A stretch of 64,000 nt of DNA, from assembly GCA_027623195.1 (NCBI GenBank), contig JAQBUT010000011.1:24650-88649 (forward strand). The letters are read 5' to 3'. The translations under genes and the position numbers were made by a program. The stretch is from Chloroflexota bacterium. Its GTDB lineage: Bacteria; Chloroflexota; Dehalococcoidia; Lucifugimonadales; JADFKI01. The notes beneath the pieces were generated by a model that was not told the origin of the DNA, did not search any database, and saw only the letters and a program-made list of their open reading frames with translations. This document shows positions 47,185 to 56,616 of this stretch, in pieces (position 1 is the stretch's first letter; every line of letters begins with the position of its first letter).

Positions 47185-47256
47185 CGAGGACCTCTGATTA
47201 TCATCTGTGATACTATACACAGGCAAATAAGCTGATTTTTGTGGGTAAATTCTGCA

Positions 47257-48924
47257 ATGTCTGAGCGCATATTGGTCGCGGTGGCCTGGCCCTATGCCAA
47301 TGGCTCCGCCCACATAGGACACATCGCCGGTACATACCTGCCGGCCGACATTTTCGCCCGGTACCATCGCATGAAGGGCAACGACGTTCTGATGGTGTCG
47401 GGAAGCGACGCCCATGGCACTCCGGTTACTATATCTGCGGAAGAGCGCGGCGTGACCCCGGAGGATGTTTTCAGCCAGTACCAGGCTGAGTTTCTGGACG
47501 ACTGGAAACGTCTGGGTATAACTTTCGACCTGTTTACCACGACGCATACCGACAATCACACTCGCGTTGCGCAAGACATGTTCTTGAGGCTCCACGAGAA
47601 GGGCTACATCTACAAGGACGCCATGGTCCAGCCCTTTTGCCTGACCGATAACCGTTACCTGGCTGACCGCTACGTGGAGGGAACGTGTCCCCATTGCAAG
47701 CATGGTGGCGCCAGGGGTGACCAGTGCGACAACTGCGGACGCACGCTCGATCCCAAGGACCTGATAGACCTTGTCTGCAAGATCTGCGGCAACCCCCCGG
47801 AGTTCAGGGAAACGGAGCACTTCTTCCTCAGGCTCAGCGTTTTTGAGGAGCAGCTGTTGGAGTGGGTGCGGAAACAGGACCACTGGCGGTCCAACGTTCG
47901 CAACTTCACCATAGGCTTCCTGGAAGGTGGTCTGCACGACAGGGCCATCACCCGGGACATCTCCTGGGGCGTTCCCGTGCCGTTGGAAGGATATGAGGGC
48001 AAGCGACTGTACGTCTGGTTTGAGGCGGTCGTGGGTTACCTGTCTGCGTCCATCGAATGGGCTGAGAGCAGTGGCAATGCGGATGCATGGAAAGACTACT
48101 GGCAGGGCGATTGCCGGGCTTACTACTTTATGGGCAAGGACAATATTCCCTTCCACACGATAATATGGCCCGCTATGCTGCTAGGCTACGAGGGCCTTAA
48201 CCTGCCATACGACGTTCCCGCCAACGAGTACCTCAACCTGGAGGGGTTCAAGCTATCCACCAGCAGGAACTGGGCCGTGTGGGTGCCAGACTATCTGGAC
48301 AGGTACGACCCTGACCCGCTCAGGTACGTGCTGTCGGCGAACCTGCCGGAGACTTCGGACTCTGATTTCTCGTGGCGAGAGTACGTTCGTCGCAACAACG
48401 ATGAGCTTGTGGCGACATTTGGAAATCTGGTGCACCGCGTTTTGTCGATGGTGAACCGTAATTTCGACGGCAAGGTGCCGGATCCCGGCGAGTTGGATGA
48501 CGTGAGCCGCGAGCTTCTTGATGAGGCCCAGGCGAGACTGGATACCGTCGGCACAGAAATCGAGGCGGTGCGCCTTCGTCAGGGCCTGAGCGCAGGCATG
48601 GGACTGGCCCAGGCCGCCAACCGATACCTGGACCAGAAGGCTCCGTGGAAAGCCGTCAAAGAAGACAAGGCAGATGCCGCGCGGACGTTGTGGGTCAGTC
48701 TGGCTGTCATTAATTGTTTAAAGACCGCGTTGTGCCCTTACCTGCCCTTCAGCTCGGATAAGATACACTTAATGTTAGGGCTTGAGGGAAGCACGCAGGA
48801 CGCTGGGTGGAACTGGGACCGCAACCAGTTGGCTCCCGGCCAACCAGTAGAGAAACCAACACCGTTGTTCGTGAAGCTGGATGAGGAACTCATCGAGGCT
48901 GAGGCGCAGCGGATAAGCGGATAA
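47257..48924 (+). CDS. metG: methionine--tRNA ligase
   Basis: WPYANG.AHIGH, CPHC/CDNC knuckle, YVWFEA, KLSTS. Confidence 0.97.
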   Translation: MSERILVAVAWPYANGSAHIGHIAGTYLPADIFARYHRMKGNDVLMVSGSDAHGTPVTISAEERGVTPEDVFSQYQAEFLDDWKRLGITFDLFTTTHTDNHTRVAQDMFLRLHEKGYIYKDAMVQPFCLTDNRYLADRYVEGTCPHCKHGGARGDQCDNCGRTLDPKDLIDLVCKICGNPPEFRETEHFFLRLSVFEEQLLEWVRKQDHWRSNVRNFTIGFLEGGLHDRAITRDISWGVPVPLEGYEGKRLYVWFEAVVGYLSASIEWAESSGNADAWKDYWQGDCRAYYFMGKDNIPFHTIIWPAMLLGYEGLNLPYDVPANEYLNLEGFKLSTSRNWAVWVPDYLDRYDPDPLRYVLSANLPETSDSDFSWREYVRRNNDELVATFGNLVHRVLSMVNRNFDGKVPDPGELDDVSRELLDEAQARLDTVGTEIEAVRLRQGLSAGMGLAQAANRYLDQKAPWKAVKEDKADAARTLWVSLAVINCLKTALCPYLPFSSDKIHLMLGLEGSTQDAGWNWDRNQLAPGQPVEKPTPLFVKLDEELIEAEAQRISG

Positions 48925-51918: not shown

Positions 51919-52932
51919 TTATCCCAGATTGAATACAAGAAGGCTGGAGATGATGTAGAGGCCAATTAGCACGGATGCCTCAATCGTAATGAAACTATGC
52001 GGCCTGTTCCGTCCGTGAGTAATTAACGCTACCGTGACCACTGCTGTCATCAGGATGGCGAACAGCGCCGTCATAATATGTATTGGAGACACAGCTTCCC
52101 ACAACGGCTGATGTATCAGCGCAATGTCATCTATAAACAGGATGAAGCCCATGTTGAACAGGTTGCTGCCGAGAACATTGGAAATAGCCAATTCGGGGGC
52201 GTTAAGACGTATGGCTGCGAACGATGCAGCCAACTCCGGCAATGAGGTGCTGAATGCCAGGAACTGCGTGCCGACGAAACTAGCGTCCCAGCCCATGATG
52301 TGGGTAAGGCCGTCGCCTATGTTCGCTAACCAAACTGCGGCACCTATCACTACTATTGCTGAGGTAACATAGATCGCAATTGACTTGGGCAGGCTGTCTC
52401 CCACGTAAAGCGGAGCGTCATTGTCATCTTTTGGTGAGTCTTGCTTTTTTTCGATCGCATAGATCATGTACATGGCGCCAAGAAAAACCAAGAACATGAT
52501 TACGGTTACAGGGCTGATAGCCAGAGAGCTCAGGGAATCGGTGGCGCCATGGATAAACATACCGATCACTGCTATAGAAATTAACATTATGCCAAGGGCG
52601 CCCAAGGCAACTGACGTGGTACTCACACGGTTCAGAATGGGGCCGTTTCGCCAGAAGAGGTCTAGAAGTCCGATAATCAGCAGGTTGAAGACGTTACTGC
52701 CGAAGGCGTCTCCGGCAGCCAGGTCCGGTGCGTCGAACAGCATGATAGAGCTTACGCCCATCCCAAGCTCCGGCATTGAGGTTGCCGTAGCGAGCAACAC
52801 TACGCCTATGAAGGACCTTCCCAATCCCGTCCTGATTGCGATAACGTCTGTCGACTTCGCCAGGAAATTGGCCGCGAACAATATGATCAGAGCGGCTCCG
52901 CCCAATTGGAGCCACAGTAAGGTTATAGTCAA
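51919..52932 (-). CDS. sodium:calcium antiporter family protein
   Basis: two alpha repeats ATSMPE...GSNVFN and STSLPE...GSNLFN. Confidence 0.92.
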   Translation of the reverse strand: MTITLLWLQLGGAALIILFAANFLAKSTDVIAIRTGLGRSFIGVVLLATATSMPELGMGVSSIMLFDAPDLAAGDAFGSNVFNLLIIGLLDLFWRNGPILNRVSTTSVALGALGIMLISIAVIGMFIHGATDSLSSLAISPVTVIMFLVFLGAMYMIYAIEKKQDSPKDDNDAPLYVGDSLPKSIAIYVTSAIVVIGAAVWLANIGDGLTHIMGWDASFVGTQFLAFSTSLPELAASFAAIRLNAPELAISNVLGSNLFNMGFILFIDDIALIHQPLWEAVSPIHIMTALFAILMTAVVTVALITHGRNRPHSFITIEASVLIGLYIISSLLVFNLG

Positions 52933-52958
52933 CAGTTTCTCCGATAATTGCAGGCGAG

Positions 52959-52988
52959 AAAAACGACCCCGGTACGCCGGGGTCGTTT
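52959..52988 (-). terminator. terminator after cysS
   Basis: AAAAACGACCCCGG-TACG-CCGGGGTCGTTT. Confidence 0.8.
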
Positions 52989-53021
52989 ATAGATCAAATT
53001 TATTGCCTGAACAGTTTGGAT

Positions 53022-55223
53022 TTAATGGGTGTGGTGAGAATGATCGTGGTCACTGCTTATCAGCAGATCTGCCCGATCCCCCCACTTGTCCAAGAAACGC
53101 CGGTAGTTCTTCTTGCTCAATTCGTCTCGCTCGCCCTCGGCCAAAGCGGACCATACTCGATGTTCGTGTAACTGCACCGGCAAGCTAGAATCCGCAACTA
53201 TCTTATAGCCCTTGTCTTTGAATTGGAAGCTATAATCCAGATCCAGATTTCTATAGAAGCGGAAGGTCTCCCTTGGAAGACCAACGTCCTTTAGTCTGGA
53301 CCTTCTGAATGCGAAGCAGTATGCCTGCATCGCGTCCATAAAGCCAGATTCGCCCTCCCCGTCATGGAAGTGGTGCAGATCGTTGGTGCGTAAGCCAAAC
53401 GGGCCTGTTACCCCGATGGTGCTGTCTCCCAGCGCATCATCTATAGGCCCGAAGATATCGCCTGAAATCTCAACGCTTGTATCCAGCATAACCACAGTTT
53501 TGCCACGGGCCTGCTTCAGGAGGATGTTCTTGGCAGCGCCCTCCCCTAGCACATGGTCGGTATGAATTACTCGTAGCCTTGGCTCGGTAGCGGCCTTTTC
53601 CTCCAGCCACTTGTCGGTCCCGTCCGCAGAGCCGTTGTCTACGATCAACACCTCCAGTGGCCTTTCGCCTACCCAGTTCAGGGCGCTTTCGAGGCATCGC
53701 TGAACGTCCCCCAGGTAATTGCACGCCACCATGCCGATGGTTAGCTCCGTGGCGTCAGGCTCGTCTACTAAGGACGGCACCTCGACTGACGACGAAAAGC
53801 TGTGCCAAGCCTCTTCGCGTTTTTCCCAGTCCGTCTTGGGCCGCACCCTGGTGTCGCCCTGGGAGTCCTGAACGACGTAGCCATCCTCGCTCAAGGCGCT
53901 TCTGATGGCGTCGGCGTTCTGGTAGTCGTCTTTGGTCCGCTTATCGGAGCGGTCGCTGATTTGCGAATGGACCTCTTGCGGGACCTTGTACGTCCGTTCA
54001 GCGCTGTCCAGGTCCATGCCAAGAATGGCGTCGAAGCGTTTCATGGCCGCGAGCTTGGCCTGACCAGGCATATCCGAACGCGCCATCTCCCACGTCAGGG
54101 CCAGCGCGCCGGGTAGGTCCAGATTGTCGTTTACCCTGTCCATGAACTTGCCGTACCACTCGGTGATGTCCGACTCGTTCTGGCCATTTTGGGAAGGCAG
54201 CATGGACCACTGCCACGCCATATTGCGCAGCCTTAACAGACCTCGTTGAGCCGCCTTTAGCGAGCTGAACGTGAAGTTGAGTCGTGTGTTGTATTTGGCA
54301 GTAAGGCATAGATATCTGAAAGCTAATGGGTCGATACCCTGGGCTTCGATGTCTGACAGTATGAAGGAGTTACCCATCGACTTGGACATCTTCACGCCAT
54401 CGGCCAGCAGGTGCTGACCGTGGGTCCAGATGTTAACGACGGGCTCCCCTGTGAAGCCTTCGCTTTGCGCTATCTCGCCCTCGTGGTGAGGGAAGATGTT
54501 GTCTACGCCGCCGGTGTGCAGGTCGAACTTTTTACCCAGGTACTTGATGGACATAGCCGAACACTCTATGTGCCAGCCGGGGAAGCCATCACCCCAGGGG
54601 CTGCTCCACTTAAGAATTCTGCCAGGCTCAGCCTGTTTCCAAAGCGTGAAGTCTCTGGCGTCGCGCTTGAGGGGATCGACGTCCACGCGGACCGCTTCTA
54701 GAAGCTCTGCCTCATTAATGTTGCCGGAGAGTTGGCCGTAATCAGGGAAGCTGCTGACTTCGTAGTAGACATTGCCCTGTACTTCGTAAGCCAGACCTTT
54801 GCGAATCAGTTCTTCGACGATTTCAACCATCCCTTCGATGTGGTCCGTCGCCTTGGGGAACTCATGCGCGGGCATAATGTTGACCTTTTTCTCATCGCTG
54901 AGGAACCGGTCCGTGTAAAACTGGGCAATCTCTTCCGCAGTCTTACCTTCGGCCAAGGCAGCGGCCACGACCTTATCTTCCCCACGCTCCAGCACTTCCT
55001 GTCGCATGTGACCCACGTCTGTAATGTTTTTGATGTGGACCACCTGCAAGTCCTGTGCGAGCAGCGCCCGACGTATCCAGTCCGCCATAAGGTACGAACG
55101 AAGATTACCGATATGCGCATCGCGGTAAACCGTCGGTCCGCACGTGTACATCTTCACAACCCCAGGTTCTATGGGGCGTACCTCATCGGATGTTTTGGTA
55201 AGAGTGTTGAAAAGCCGTAGCAC
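53022..55223 (-). CDS. cysS: cysteine--tRNA ligase with C-terminal GT2 glycosyltransferase-like domain
   Basis: CGPTVY..AHIGN, PGWHIECSAM, FPHHE, KMSKS, ADAIR anticodon domain; then VLIVDNGSADGT...AKNILLKQARGKTVVMLD. Confidence 0.93.
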   Translation of the reverse strand: MLRLFNTLTKTSDEVRPIEPGVVKMYTCGPTVYRDAHIGNLRSYLMADWIRRALLAQDLQVVHIKNITDVGHMRQEVLERGEDKVVAAALAEGKTAEEIAQFYTDRFLSDEKKVNIMPAHEFPKATDHIEGMVEIVEELIRKGLAYEVQGNVYYEVSSFPDYGQLSGNINEAELLEAVRVDVDPLKRDARDFTLWKQAEPGRILKWSSPWGDGFPGWHIECSAMSIKYLGKKFDLHTGGVDNIFPHHEGEIAQSEGFTGEPVVNIWTHGQHLLADGVKMSKSMGNSFILSDIEAQGIDPLAFRYLCLTAKYNTRLNFTFSSLKAAQRGLLRLRNMAWQWSMLPSQNGQNESDITEWYGKFMDRVNDNLDLPGALALTWEMARSDMPGQAKLAAMKRFDAILGMDLDSAERTYKVPQEVHSQISDRSDKRTKDDYQNADAIRSALSEDGYVVQDSQGDTRVRPKTDWEKREEAWHSFSSSVEVPSLVDEPDATELTIGMVACNYLGDVQRCLESALNWVGERPLEVLIVDNGSADGTDKWLEEKAATEPRLRVIHTDHVLGEGAAKNILLKQARGKTVVMLDTSVEISGDIFGPIDDALGDSTIGVTGPFGLRTNDLHHFHDGEGESGFMDAMQAYCFAFRRSRLKDVGLPRETFRFYRNLDLDYSFQFKDKGYKIVADSSLPVQLHEHRVWSALAEGERDELSKKNYRRFLDKWGDRADLLISSDHDHSHHTH

Positions 55224-55264
55224 TTGTGTCCTCCCAGCCCTGCTTCAACCAAGGGCCTGGGACA

Positions 55265-55293
55265 ATTTTACTCTGCCGTTGCGGAGATGTCTA
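55265..55293 (-). promoter_or_regulatory. cysS promoter
   Basis: minus strand TAGACA-17 nt-TAAAAT. Confidence 0.6.
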
Positions 55294-55473: not shown

Positions 55474-56616
55474 ATGGAATTTGGAACTCTTGGCACATAT
55501 TGCGGGTTATGCGCTCTTATATTAGGCCTCGGCGAGCTTTTGCATCGAGTGATAGACGATGGCTCGCGCATGAAACTGGGCGGTTACCTGAACGACCTCG
55601 TAATGCGTCCCCCACACAGATGGGTGCGCAAGACCAACGGCGCGTTTAACAGGCTGTTCGACGGGATATTTGCCGCGAATAAGACGGCCTTTGAGGACGC
55701 GATATGGATGGGACTAATACTGTCGCCGTTATTGTTGACCGCGATTCTATCTCCTTCGTTCGTGGGTGAGGAAGCCTTCGCTGCATCCGCACCCGAAGCC
55801 CTTCTGACGGCGATAGGGCTTGCATTGGGTTCTGCCATTGGCGTTCCGTTCGGCAGGTGGTTGTCAAAATAAGGTGCGATAGAACTTATCGTACTCGGCA
55901 TCACCGTCGGCATCATCGGCATCTTCGGCTTCGGCGGCATTATTGACCGCGTCGGCGATGGCATCACCGGCGTTCTCGGCATTGTCCTCGGCATGGCCCT
56001 CCCCATCGTCTTCGGCATCGTCTTCTTATTTTCGAGGGGTTATCATATGCCGGTACGACCCCAGAGGGCGTTGGCGTGGTCGCTGGGTTTTATAGTCATT
56101 GCGGGAACCGGAGCAGCCTTGCTTATACCCAATGTTCTGGACTCATTCAGGGCGGAACTGGACGCGACTGGCCCCACGCTGTTTGCCTTCGTTGCGTTCA
56201 ACATGTTCGCGGACAGCGCATCGCTTTGGGAAACTCGATGGGTCTTGAGACGTGGGCTGAAAGCGTCCTGGTACTCGCTGCTCGGCTTGCTGGTGCTGGA
56301 CTTACTGCTTTCGGCCGCCATCTTCCTGTACTTACCGCTCGTGCTTGGCGAGCTCCCGGACTTTTGGAAGGCGGCCTTTTTCTTTGGTGGAAATCGCCCC
56401 TGGCTCGGCGTTCTGTTCTGGACGACTTTCTACACATCCGCAGTGTTCTACCTGTTCGTGATTTCGTCGCTGCTGGTCAGGCCGCTATCGCGAGTGCCAA
56501 AATTGGGACAGCATCTGCAGGTCGAAACGCAGCCTGTGCGGGTGCTTACGCTGGTGGCGATGATTGTGGTAACGGTGGTGTTTTGGGGAGTCATGGCAGT
56601 CTCCAATATCGTCTGA
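55474..56616 (+). pseudogene. multi-TM membrane protein interrupted by an in-frame TAA at 55870-55872
   Basis: ORFs 55474-55872 and 55993-56616 share a frame; the gap reads as open hydrophobic Gly/Ile-rich sequence. Confidence 0.65.

Follow-up and report, generated by a model that had tools for sequence, protein, structure and literature searches.

Why would a bacterium join an enzyme that charges tRNA-Cys to one that transfers sugars? The question is raised by a gene in a 64,000-nucleotide (nt) stretch of the Chloroflexota bacterium assembly GCA_027623195.1, the whole of which is called the window here. The gene is a single open reading frame (ORF) of 733 amino acids (aa) at 53022..55223, on the minus strand with a GTG start, and it encodes a cysteinyl-tRNA synthetase (CysRS) fused to a family 2 glycosyltransferase (GT2). 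Window coordinates are 1-based positions in the stretch, and residue numbers refer to the 733-aa translation. An earlier reading made from the letters of this DNA (the sequence-only reading) had the locus and the ORF right; the strand is corrected here to minus. This architecture is undescribed, widespread and strongly conserved: in the partly accessible literature covered by our search, subscription journals and supplements aside, no CysRS-glycosyltransferase fusion or CysS_C-GT2 protein is described. We tentatively propose that the protein may be a glycosyltransferase (GT) that is directed at tRNA-Cys, with the anticodon arm as its most likely target, and that in the SAR202 lineage is coupled to a dedicated second CysRS, a reading that we prefer while holding it short of probable. 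Among the options raised by the sequence-only reading, the evidence favours glycosylation of the bound tRNA.

The gene and its encoded domains are laid out as follows.

53022..55223, minus strand: whole CysRS-GT2 fusion gene, with the GTG start at 55223-55221 and the stop at 53024-53022
54246..55178, minus strand: CysRS catalytic region with a Rossmann fold, residues 16-326 (Pfam tRNA-synt_1e, E 2.5e-91)
54012..54245, minus strand: helical CysRS region, residues 327-404, after the catalytic core and before the anticodon-binding domain (TIGR00435 coverage, 3sp1 alignment, helices of the full-length model)
53841..53984, minus strand: CysS_C anticodon-binding domain, residues 414-461 (Pfam PF23493; alignment to 1li5 residues 414-457)
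53754..53840, minus strand: conserved, ordered linker, residues 462-490, with the motif SS..EV.S.LDEP (alignment consensus; predicted local distance difference test, pLDDT, 86-97)
53049..53753, minus strand: GT2 domain of the GT-A fold, residues 491-725 (Pfam PF00535, structural model, structure search, conservation)
53025..53048, minus strand: His-rich tail HDHSHHTH, residues 726-733 (predicted disordered; pLDDT <50 for residues 727-733)

The translation contains CGPT, HIGN, HIEC, PHHE, KMSKS, IVDNGSADGT, GEGAAKN, MLDTS, FYRNLDLD and the tail HDHSHHTH, so that every motif quoted in the sequence-only reading is present. The sequence of the tail is not conserved, and His-rich ends recur in a few relatives.

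The first 462 residues align end to end with solved CysRSs (3sp1, E 1.4e-89; 1li5, E 6e-73), the closest being that of Borrelia burgdorferi (3sp1). The protein scores 395.5 bits against the NCBIfam cysS model TIGR00435 (cut-off 340), covering model positions 1-463 of 466, and 397.1 bits in a genome-wide search; its Pfam CysS_C match reaches E 2.7e-5 and 24.6 bits (cut-off 23). The catalytic region holds HIGN, C28 and C221, H246/H247/E248, and KMSKS at residues 278-282, and in an alignment of 35 fused homologues C28, C221, H246/H247/E248 and K278/M279 are invariant. The cysteines and the H246/H247/E248 triad are what we take to be the zinc ligands, from alignment to canonical CysS and from the E. 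coli numbering. R429, Y434, D438 and R441 sit at the E. coli positions R427, W432, D436 and R439. These four are given as anticodon-contact residues of E. coli CysRS, with R427 bonding G34, in the available part of a 2026 engineering paper based on 1U0B (PMC13449415). Set against canonical CysRSs (E. coli CysS, 1LI5/1U0B; 3SP1), the fusion has the same zinc ligands, KMSKS and anticodon-contact residues, but it reads HIGN, like 3SP1, in place of HIGH, carries ~270 extra C-terminal residues with a GT-A fold, and is always a second copy. The gene appears to encode a second, complete and apparently active CysRS of the HIGN (Borrelia-like) type. The earlier claim of a complete CysRS is upheld by the cysS score, the catalytic and zinc motifs, and the anticodon-binding domain.

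The C-terminal part is matched by Pfam Glycos_transf_2 at residues 496-585 (E 2.3e-16, 60.6 bits against a cut-off of 23.3), so that both profile hidden Markov models named in the sequence-only reading, tRNA-synt_1e and Glycos_transf_2, are found. A model of residues 405-733 built from a 50-sequence alignment has a mean pLDDT of 94.7 and a predicted template modelling score (pTM) of 0.87, and the full-length model reaches 88.3 and 0.84. In a structure search against representatives, the top of the list consists of GT-A glycosyltransferases only, with VIA Z values of 20.4 for PcManGT (6yv7), 19.9 for GalNAc-T1, 19.4 for K4CP and 18.1 for SpsA. The superposition on 6yv7 aligns 218 residues with a root-mean-square deviation of 3.2, and Foldseek agrees on the GT-A fold (E about 1e-12). 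The soluble GT-A enzymes (PcManGT, 6YV7; SpsA, 1H7L; K4CP, 2Z86; ppGalNAc-T, 8V9Q), at Z 18-20 over 210-235 aligned residues, resemble the fusion in the nucleotide-binding half at the N-terminus, in an Asp of the ED type (D661) and in a late His (H686). The fusion differs from them in its identity of 14-20%, in D-T-S-V-E for DxD, in its N-terminal anticodon-binding domain and in a conserved basic C-terminal helix.

The key residues of the domain are D529, D581-T-S, E585, R641, D661, H686 and H688. Across 50 family sequences, R641, D661 and H686 are each invariant (50/50), and E585 is found in 48 and D581 in 43. The DxD position reads D581-T-S-V-E585, and D581 is present in 20/20 fused and 23/30 standalone forms. 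From its pattern, D661 (in NLDLD) presumably stands where GT2 enzymes have the ED motif. The domain looks catalytically competent, at least in fused forms. The structure prediction bears out what had been claimed earlier, namely a GT-A/GT2 domain with a conserved active site and a coding linker: the fold is confidently modelled, the residues are conserved, and the linker is ordered at pLDDT >=86.

The atypical D-T-S at the DxD motif raises the possibility of a silent glycosyltransferase. The domain would then serve as an appended tRNA-binding, oligomerisation or stabilising module of a specialised (stress-resistant, zinc-sparing) second CysRS. Appended non-catalytic domains are common in aminoacyl-tRNA synthetases (aaRSs), and the His-rich tail, together with a MeaB-type GTPase encoded downstream in 53/78 SAR202 loci, hints at metal handling. 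Second, Zur-regulated CysRS paralogues that keep their zinc sites are described in a 2009 study, as far as its text was available (PMC2770081). We nevertheless regard a silent domain as very improbable, given the conservation of R641, D661, H686 and E585 and the ratio of nonsynonymous to synonymous substitution rates (dN/dS) of the GT. Against the closest relative (locus L018), dN/dS is 0.05 for the GT, 0.07 for the CysRS core and 0.20 for CysS_C, with synonymous sites near saturation in more distant pairs.

What the GT keeps company with elsewhere bears more directly on its function. In a survey sample of 401 Chloroflexota genomes, the GT family is present in 104, and 100 matches at E <= 2.2e-30 comprise 50 in frames of at least 700 aa and 50 in frames of 256-545 aa. 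The standalone protein, of ~310-340 aa, consists of CysS_C and GT2: Pfam places CysS_C N-terminal to GT2 in the standalone gene of genome G341 and before GT2 in 15/42 non-fused cluster representatives. Both domains also occur in all 120 of the relatives listed for an Actinomycetes member, P0186, whose clade has 644 relatives at E <= 1e-10 with an Actinomycetes metagenome-assembled genome (MAG) as its sole named member. Clusters of Chloroflexota and Actinomycetota with the CysS_C-GT2 architecture also appear, independently, in a protein atlas, and the family amounts to 83 sequence clusters at E <= 1e-30. Among cultured Chloroflexota, Ktedonospora formicarum carries the standalone form (WP_220194942.1). 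The N-terminus of one outlier, P0129, is unrelated, and this sequence is probably a mis-called fragment.

A profile of the CysS_C-GT2 unit matches the C-terminal domains of solved CysRSs (3tqo, E 8.7e-8; 1li5/1u0b, E 1.5e-6), the match in the E. coli structures 1li5/1u0b being residues 409-460. Aligned to 1li5, the E. coli residues R427, W432, D436 and R439 correspond to unit positions 25, 30, 34 and 37. In the 50 sequences these positions hold R in 48, an aromatic residue in 48, D in 49 and R/K in 48; the standalone forms account for 29, 28, 29 and 28 of these, out of 30. Fused and standalone forms are intermingled in a tree built from the unit, with at least three changes forced by well-supported branches and six by parsimony; some of the 'standalone' metagenome rows in this tree may be fragments. 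As far as sequence comparison tells, the constant partner of the GT is CysS_C and not the cysteine-activating core, in both Chloroflexota and Actinomycetes. The GT persists without the CysRS core in large clades and so is not merely an accessory of CysRS. A viral search, by a method that reaches close relatives only, gave no relatives of the window's unit, and with P0186 it gave a single match of 29 residues to CysS_C alone.

The standalone CysS_C-GT was also considered as one half of a split CysRS, and this was rejected. It lies beside a single full-length cysS in 5/5 tested genomes of families f45 and f53, and the truncated CysRS-like genes of ~400 aa that occur in Chloroflexota form a separate MshC-like lineage. 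These genes, which lack CysS_C, are common in families with and without the GT (5/5 tested genomes from families without it), have an HLGH motif and are 37% identical to the fusion. Against the MshC model TIGR03447 (cut-off 485.1) they score 365-382 bits, versus 219.3 for the fusion, which thus falls well below the cut-off. Examples are L098:5074-6333 (plus strand) and L105:8303-9484 (minus strand). This paralogue is a candidate Cys ligase for a mycothiol-like thiol, and a search of the window's genome did not find it there.

The sequence-only reading had put first a thiol route, in which cysteinyl-adenylate (Cys-AMP) is channelled to a new thiol in the manner of MshC. More broadly, the GT would build a glycoside and the CysRS core or Cys-tRNA would donate cysteine, giving a cysteinyl-glycoside or a new low-molecular-weight thiol. 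MshC offers the precedent: in the available part of a 2022 review it is a CysRS homologue that ligates Cys to glucosaminyl-inositol (GlcN-Ins) (PMC9437257). The window's genome has seven PIG-L/LmbE-family genes and no MshC-like paralogue, and two other lineages have an MshC-like gene near a standalone CysS_C-GT, at a distance of 7 kb in G009 and 1.5 kb in G333. MshC (TIGR03447; 3C8Z, 8HFM) is likewise a CysRS-derived paralogue with a non-translational role and aligns with residues 2-377 of the fusion (E 2e-49), but it has about 410 aa, lacks the anticodon-binding domain and acts on GlcN-Ins, whereas the fusion fully retains its tRNA-binding domain at residues 414-461. Half of the GT occurrences keep CysS_C without a Cys-activating core, and Chloroflexota with MshC-like genes are often without the GT. 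The top clusters of conserved neighbours from 78 loci contain no thiol-pathway gene (deacetylase, acetyltransferase or other), and 0/7 PIG-L genes lie on the window's contig region. In the 1U0B geometry, moreover, CysS_C binds the end of the tRNA that is far from the aminoacyl group. We consider the thiol route quite unlikely, and the earlier preference for it finds no support, given the MshC score, the retained anticodon domain and the lack of thiol genes among these neighbours.

The fusion itself is real and old. All of the homologues listed (at least 120) have 704-764 aa with PF01406 and PF00535 and are 67-100% identical; the few that are named come from Chloroflexi or SAR202. Eighty genome loci, titled as MAGs of Dehalococcoidia, Chloroflexota or SAR202, were fetched and 79 held a homologue, which has at least 707 aa in 75/79, the remaining ones being at contig ends. 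The fusion is found in 24/24 sampled genomes of the same taxonomic family and in 10/16 other sampled families of the order. Contigs from an independent study (X2 record 1 and X4 record 15) span 52900-54564 and 52900-54706 with no gaps and no indels reported, and they bridge the CysRS/GT junction. An assembly or sequencing artefact, which the sequence-only reading had named as one outcome that would undo it, was rejected on the recurrence of the fusion across homologues, the family and closed genomes and on these independent contigs; the same architecture is found throughout related genomes.

The fused gene does not replace the housekeeping enzyme. A canonical cysS (511 bits, 454 aa, 36% identical to the fusion) lies on another contig of the same genome, which is 87% complete. 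Among the sampled Chloroflexota genomes, a GT-family match in an open frame of at least 700 aa occurs in 50/401, and at least two cysS-like genes are present in 48 of these 50, the other two genomes being 57% and 76% complete. Each of five closed genomes has exactly one canonical and one fused copy, and six of six genomes of the same order without the GT have one cysS. The long-frame tally includes G344, which is flagged as unpublished, and the cysS tally includes the likewise flagged G227, G038, G344, G272, G173 and G145; none of our statements rests on genomes so flagged. The fusion is an accessory paralogue under selection and is never the sole CysRS in near-complete genomes. The second canonical cysS that the sequence-only reading had proposed to look for is present here, as it always is in near-complete genomes with the fusion.

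The genome encodes a single tRNA-Cys(GCA) of ordinary shape. A dedicated second tRNA as substrate was looked for and not found, there being one tRNA-Cys in this genome (87% complete) and one match per closed relative. In 18 related loci scanned, no tRNA-Cys, nor any other tRNA, adjoins the fusion; unrelated tRNA genes lie 3.4-9.6 kb away in 5/18, and the only tRNA gene within the 64-kb window is a tRNA-Trp. These results separate the fusion from CysRS* of Desulfobacterales, which, according to the available part of the 2022 review, has no anticodon-binding domain and aminoacylates a SelC-like tRNA (Mukai et al. 2017, via PMC9437257). CysRS* resembles the fusion as a second CysRS that coexists with the housekeeping enzyme. 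The marks of CysRS*, loss of the anticodon domain and linkage to selC*/selB*, are absent: the conserved core of the fusion family is the anticodon domain, and no extra tRNA gene stands near the fusion in the 18 loci. For CysRS, the parts of that aaRS-paralogue review that were available give CysRS* and MshC only (PMC9437257). By the fold and score tests applied, the fusion classes as a CysRS and as a GT2 of the GT-A fold, and as neither MshC nor CysRS*.

Taken with the constancy of CysS_C, the tentatively preferred reading is as follows. By binding the GCA anticodon of tRNA-Cys, CysS_C would guide the glycosyltransferase to this tRNA, and the GT domain would use a nucleotide-sugar to glycosylate it, with an anticodon-arm nucleotide as the most likely acceptor. 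The anticodon arm is the likeliest acceptor because CysS_C and the GT are predicted as one rigid unit and the anticodon is far from the acceptor end. In SAR202 the fusion would also charge the same tRNA, and a single enzyme would thus yield tRNA-Cys that bears both a sugar and cysteine.

The kind of reaction has a parallel in animals. QTGAL is itself a member of GT2. To our knowledge, sugar-bearing tRNA nucleosides are known only as animal queuosine derivatives, and tRNA-Cys (GCA) does not belong to the tRNAs that carry queuosine. In vertebrates, QTGAL and QTMAN attach sugar from a nucleotide-sugar to an anticodon nucleoside of specific tRNAs, as stated in the available part of the source (PMC11928779). 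The likeness lies in the proposed kind of reaction and is a functional analogy only: in that part of the source their substrate is the queuosine-34 of animal tRNA-Tyr and tRNA-Asp, and no aaRS-derived guide domain is reported for the two enzymes. A 2026 preprint, available in part, treats vertebrate queuosine glycosylation and protection from tRNA fragmentation. Glu-Q-RS (YadB) is an aaRS relative that works on an anticodon, a truncated GluRS paralogue that, in place of aminoacylation or in addition to it, modifies the anticodon of tRNA-Asp according to the available part of the 2022 review (PMC9437257). In YadB the synthetase active site does the chemistry and there is no anticodon-binding domain, whereas here a separate GT would act, guided by CysS_C.

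Several points weigh against a tRNA-guided glycosyltransferase. Its function is inferred from domain architecture alone, and the conservation of the CysS_C residues could have a structural cause. We know of no glycosylated nucleoside in bacterial tRNA-Cys. Relatives that lack the gene (G430, G432) have a tRNA-Cys of 100% identity, and with one tRNA-Cys gene and the same sequence in non-carriers, the tRNA itself gives no sign of being a special substrate. Of the 30 standalone forms, 7 have another residue for the DxD aspartate and 12 for the first nucleotide-binding Asp. With a median net charge of -7 and a median pI of 5.6 over 50 sequences, the GT domain is acidic, which is unusual for an RNA-binding enzyme; only the C-terminal helix, residues 696-714, is basic, and this helix is the most conserved non-core element of the domain. 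Finally, no known tRNA-modification gene is among the conserved neighbours.

The genomic context of the family is translation-related. In SAR202 a MeaB-type G3E GTPase follows immediately downstream on the same strand in the 53 loci mentioned above, with the ribosome hibernation factor HPF next, two genes downstream of the fusion. In Actinomycetes a block of CysS_C-GT2, extracytoplasmic function (ECF) sigma factor and anti-sigma factor sits between tuf and secE-nusG-rplK-rpoB. The ECF sigma factor lies directly after the standalone gene in 9/16 Actinomycetes metagenome loci (with a 3-nt gap in L130) and is followed by a membrane-anchored ZAS-type anti-sigma factor, which has the zinc-type HxxxCxxC in 7/8. 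ORF calls in these high-G+C contigs are crude. The apparent operon is seen at loci L117, L123-L125, L128-L131 and L133 (for example, L130:8001-9993). The presence of these two regulators in the operon is a hint that the Actinomycetes form has a role linked to stress.

The same operon also fits an envelope- or thiol-stress regulon, and with it a GT that acts on a non-RNA acceptor such as a small molecule, a lipid-linked glycan or a protein. CysRS or CysS_C would then be a tRNA-Cys-dependent regulator or scaffold that couples glycosylation, for example, to the availability of tRNA-Cys or to cysteine or thiol stress. The nearest relatives in sequence and fold all act on glycans, lipids or peptides, and the acidity of the GT domain points the same way. 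Such an acceptor leaves the conservation of the anticodon contacts (28-29 of 30 standalone forms) without a reason, no membrane segment or signal peptide is seen by eye in the translation, and no glycan or envelope genes are conserved beside the fusion. An anticodon-binding domain, furthermore, cannot tell charged from uncharged tRNA, which counts against a tRNA-Cys-dependent regulator. On balance we find a non-RNA acceptor doubtful.

Under a tRNA-guided glycosyltransferase, the Actinomycetes operon fits a stress role of a sugar on tRNA-Cys. It is possible, although speculative, that the CysS_C-GT2 proteins are the first bacterial tRNA glycosyltransferases, which would have captured a CysRS anticodon domain and, in SAR202 and other Chloroflexota, have become welded to a second CysRS. 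The sugar may shield tRNA-Cys from stress- or toxin-induced cleavage of the anticodon, or it may retune the decoding of Cys codons. If true, this would be a new route of tRNA modification, in which a GT is aimed at one tRNA through the anticodon domain of that tRNA's synthetase, and a new way of reusing aaRS domains. The fusion belongs to the core genes of an abundant marine lineage and there are cultured carriers of the standalone form, which makes the idea directly testable at the bench. Even with a non-RNA acceptor, a conserved physical tie of tRNA-Cys recognition to glycosyl transfer would be unexplained biology.

Three further features flank the gene in the window.

55229..55235, minus strand: Shine-Dalgarno-like GGGAGGA, 5 nt upstream of the GTG (from reading of the sequence)
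55265..55293, minus strand: sigma-70-like promoter TAGACA-17-TAAAAT, 10/12, a consensus match only (2 sites against 1.6 expected from shuffles)
52956..52988, minus strand: intrinsic terminator directly 3' of the stop, with a 12-bp G+C-rich stem, the loop CGUA and a U-rich tail

The terminator folds at -22.1 kcal/mol (z -4.57), and 0/200 shuffles are equally stable. With the Shine-Dalgarno sequence and promoter-like match upstream and the terminator right after the stop, the fusion gene looks like its own transcription unit. A consensus scan had overlooked this terminator, which separates the fusion gene from the Na/Ca-exchanger-type gene downstream.

The neighbours in the window are the Na/Ca-exchanger-type membrane protein, a 106-aa protein without a Pfam match, an amidohydrolase, an Old Yellow Enzyme (OYE) flavoenzyme and pyruvate kinase, and they are conserved in no more than about 11 close relatives. 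The MeaB-type GTPase is absent downstream of the window's gene, where the terminator follows; elsewhere it is seen among loci L019-L097 (for example, L052:11116-12093) with no methylmalonyl-CoA mutase nearby, and its adjacency is treated as synteny. Two small hydrophobic ORFs (132 and 207 aa, no Pfam match) lie at 55474-56616 on the plus strand, divergent from the fusion. A methionyl-tRNA synthetase (MetRS) gene is found 4 kb from the fusion gene, at 47239-48921 on the plus strand; two aaRS genes in one neighbourhood are probably a coincidence, MetRS being conserved in only 10 related loci. Outside the window, no link was found between the fusion and a tRNA-Sec (UCA) encoded at C46:48583-48680; with this tRNA the organism probably makes selenoproteins. 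In family f42 (large genomes, the Ktedonospora clade), the standalone gene adjoins a gamma-glutamyltranspeptidase or mannose-1-phosphate guanylyltransferase gene and is upstream of an M3 oligopeptidase (L016:2488-3741 and L017:2827-3738, both minus strand).

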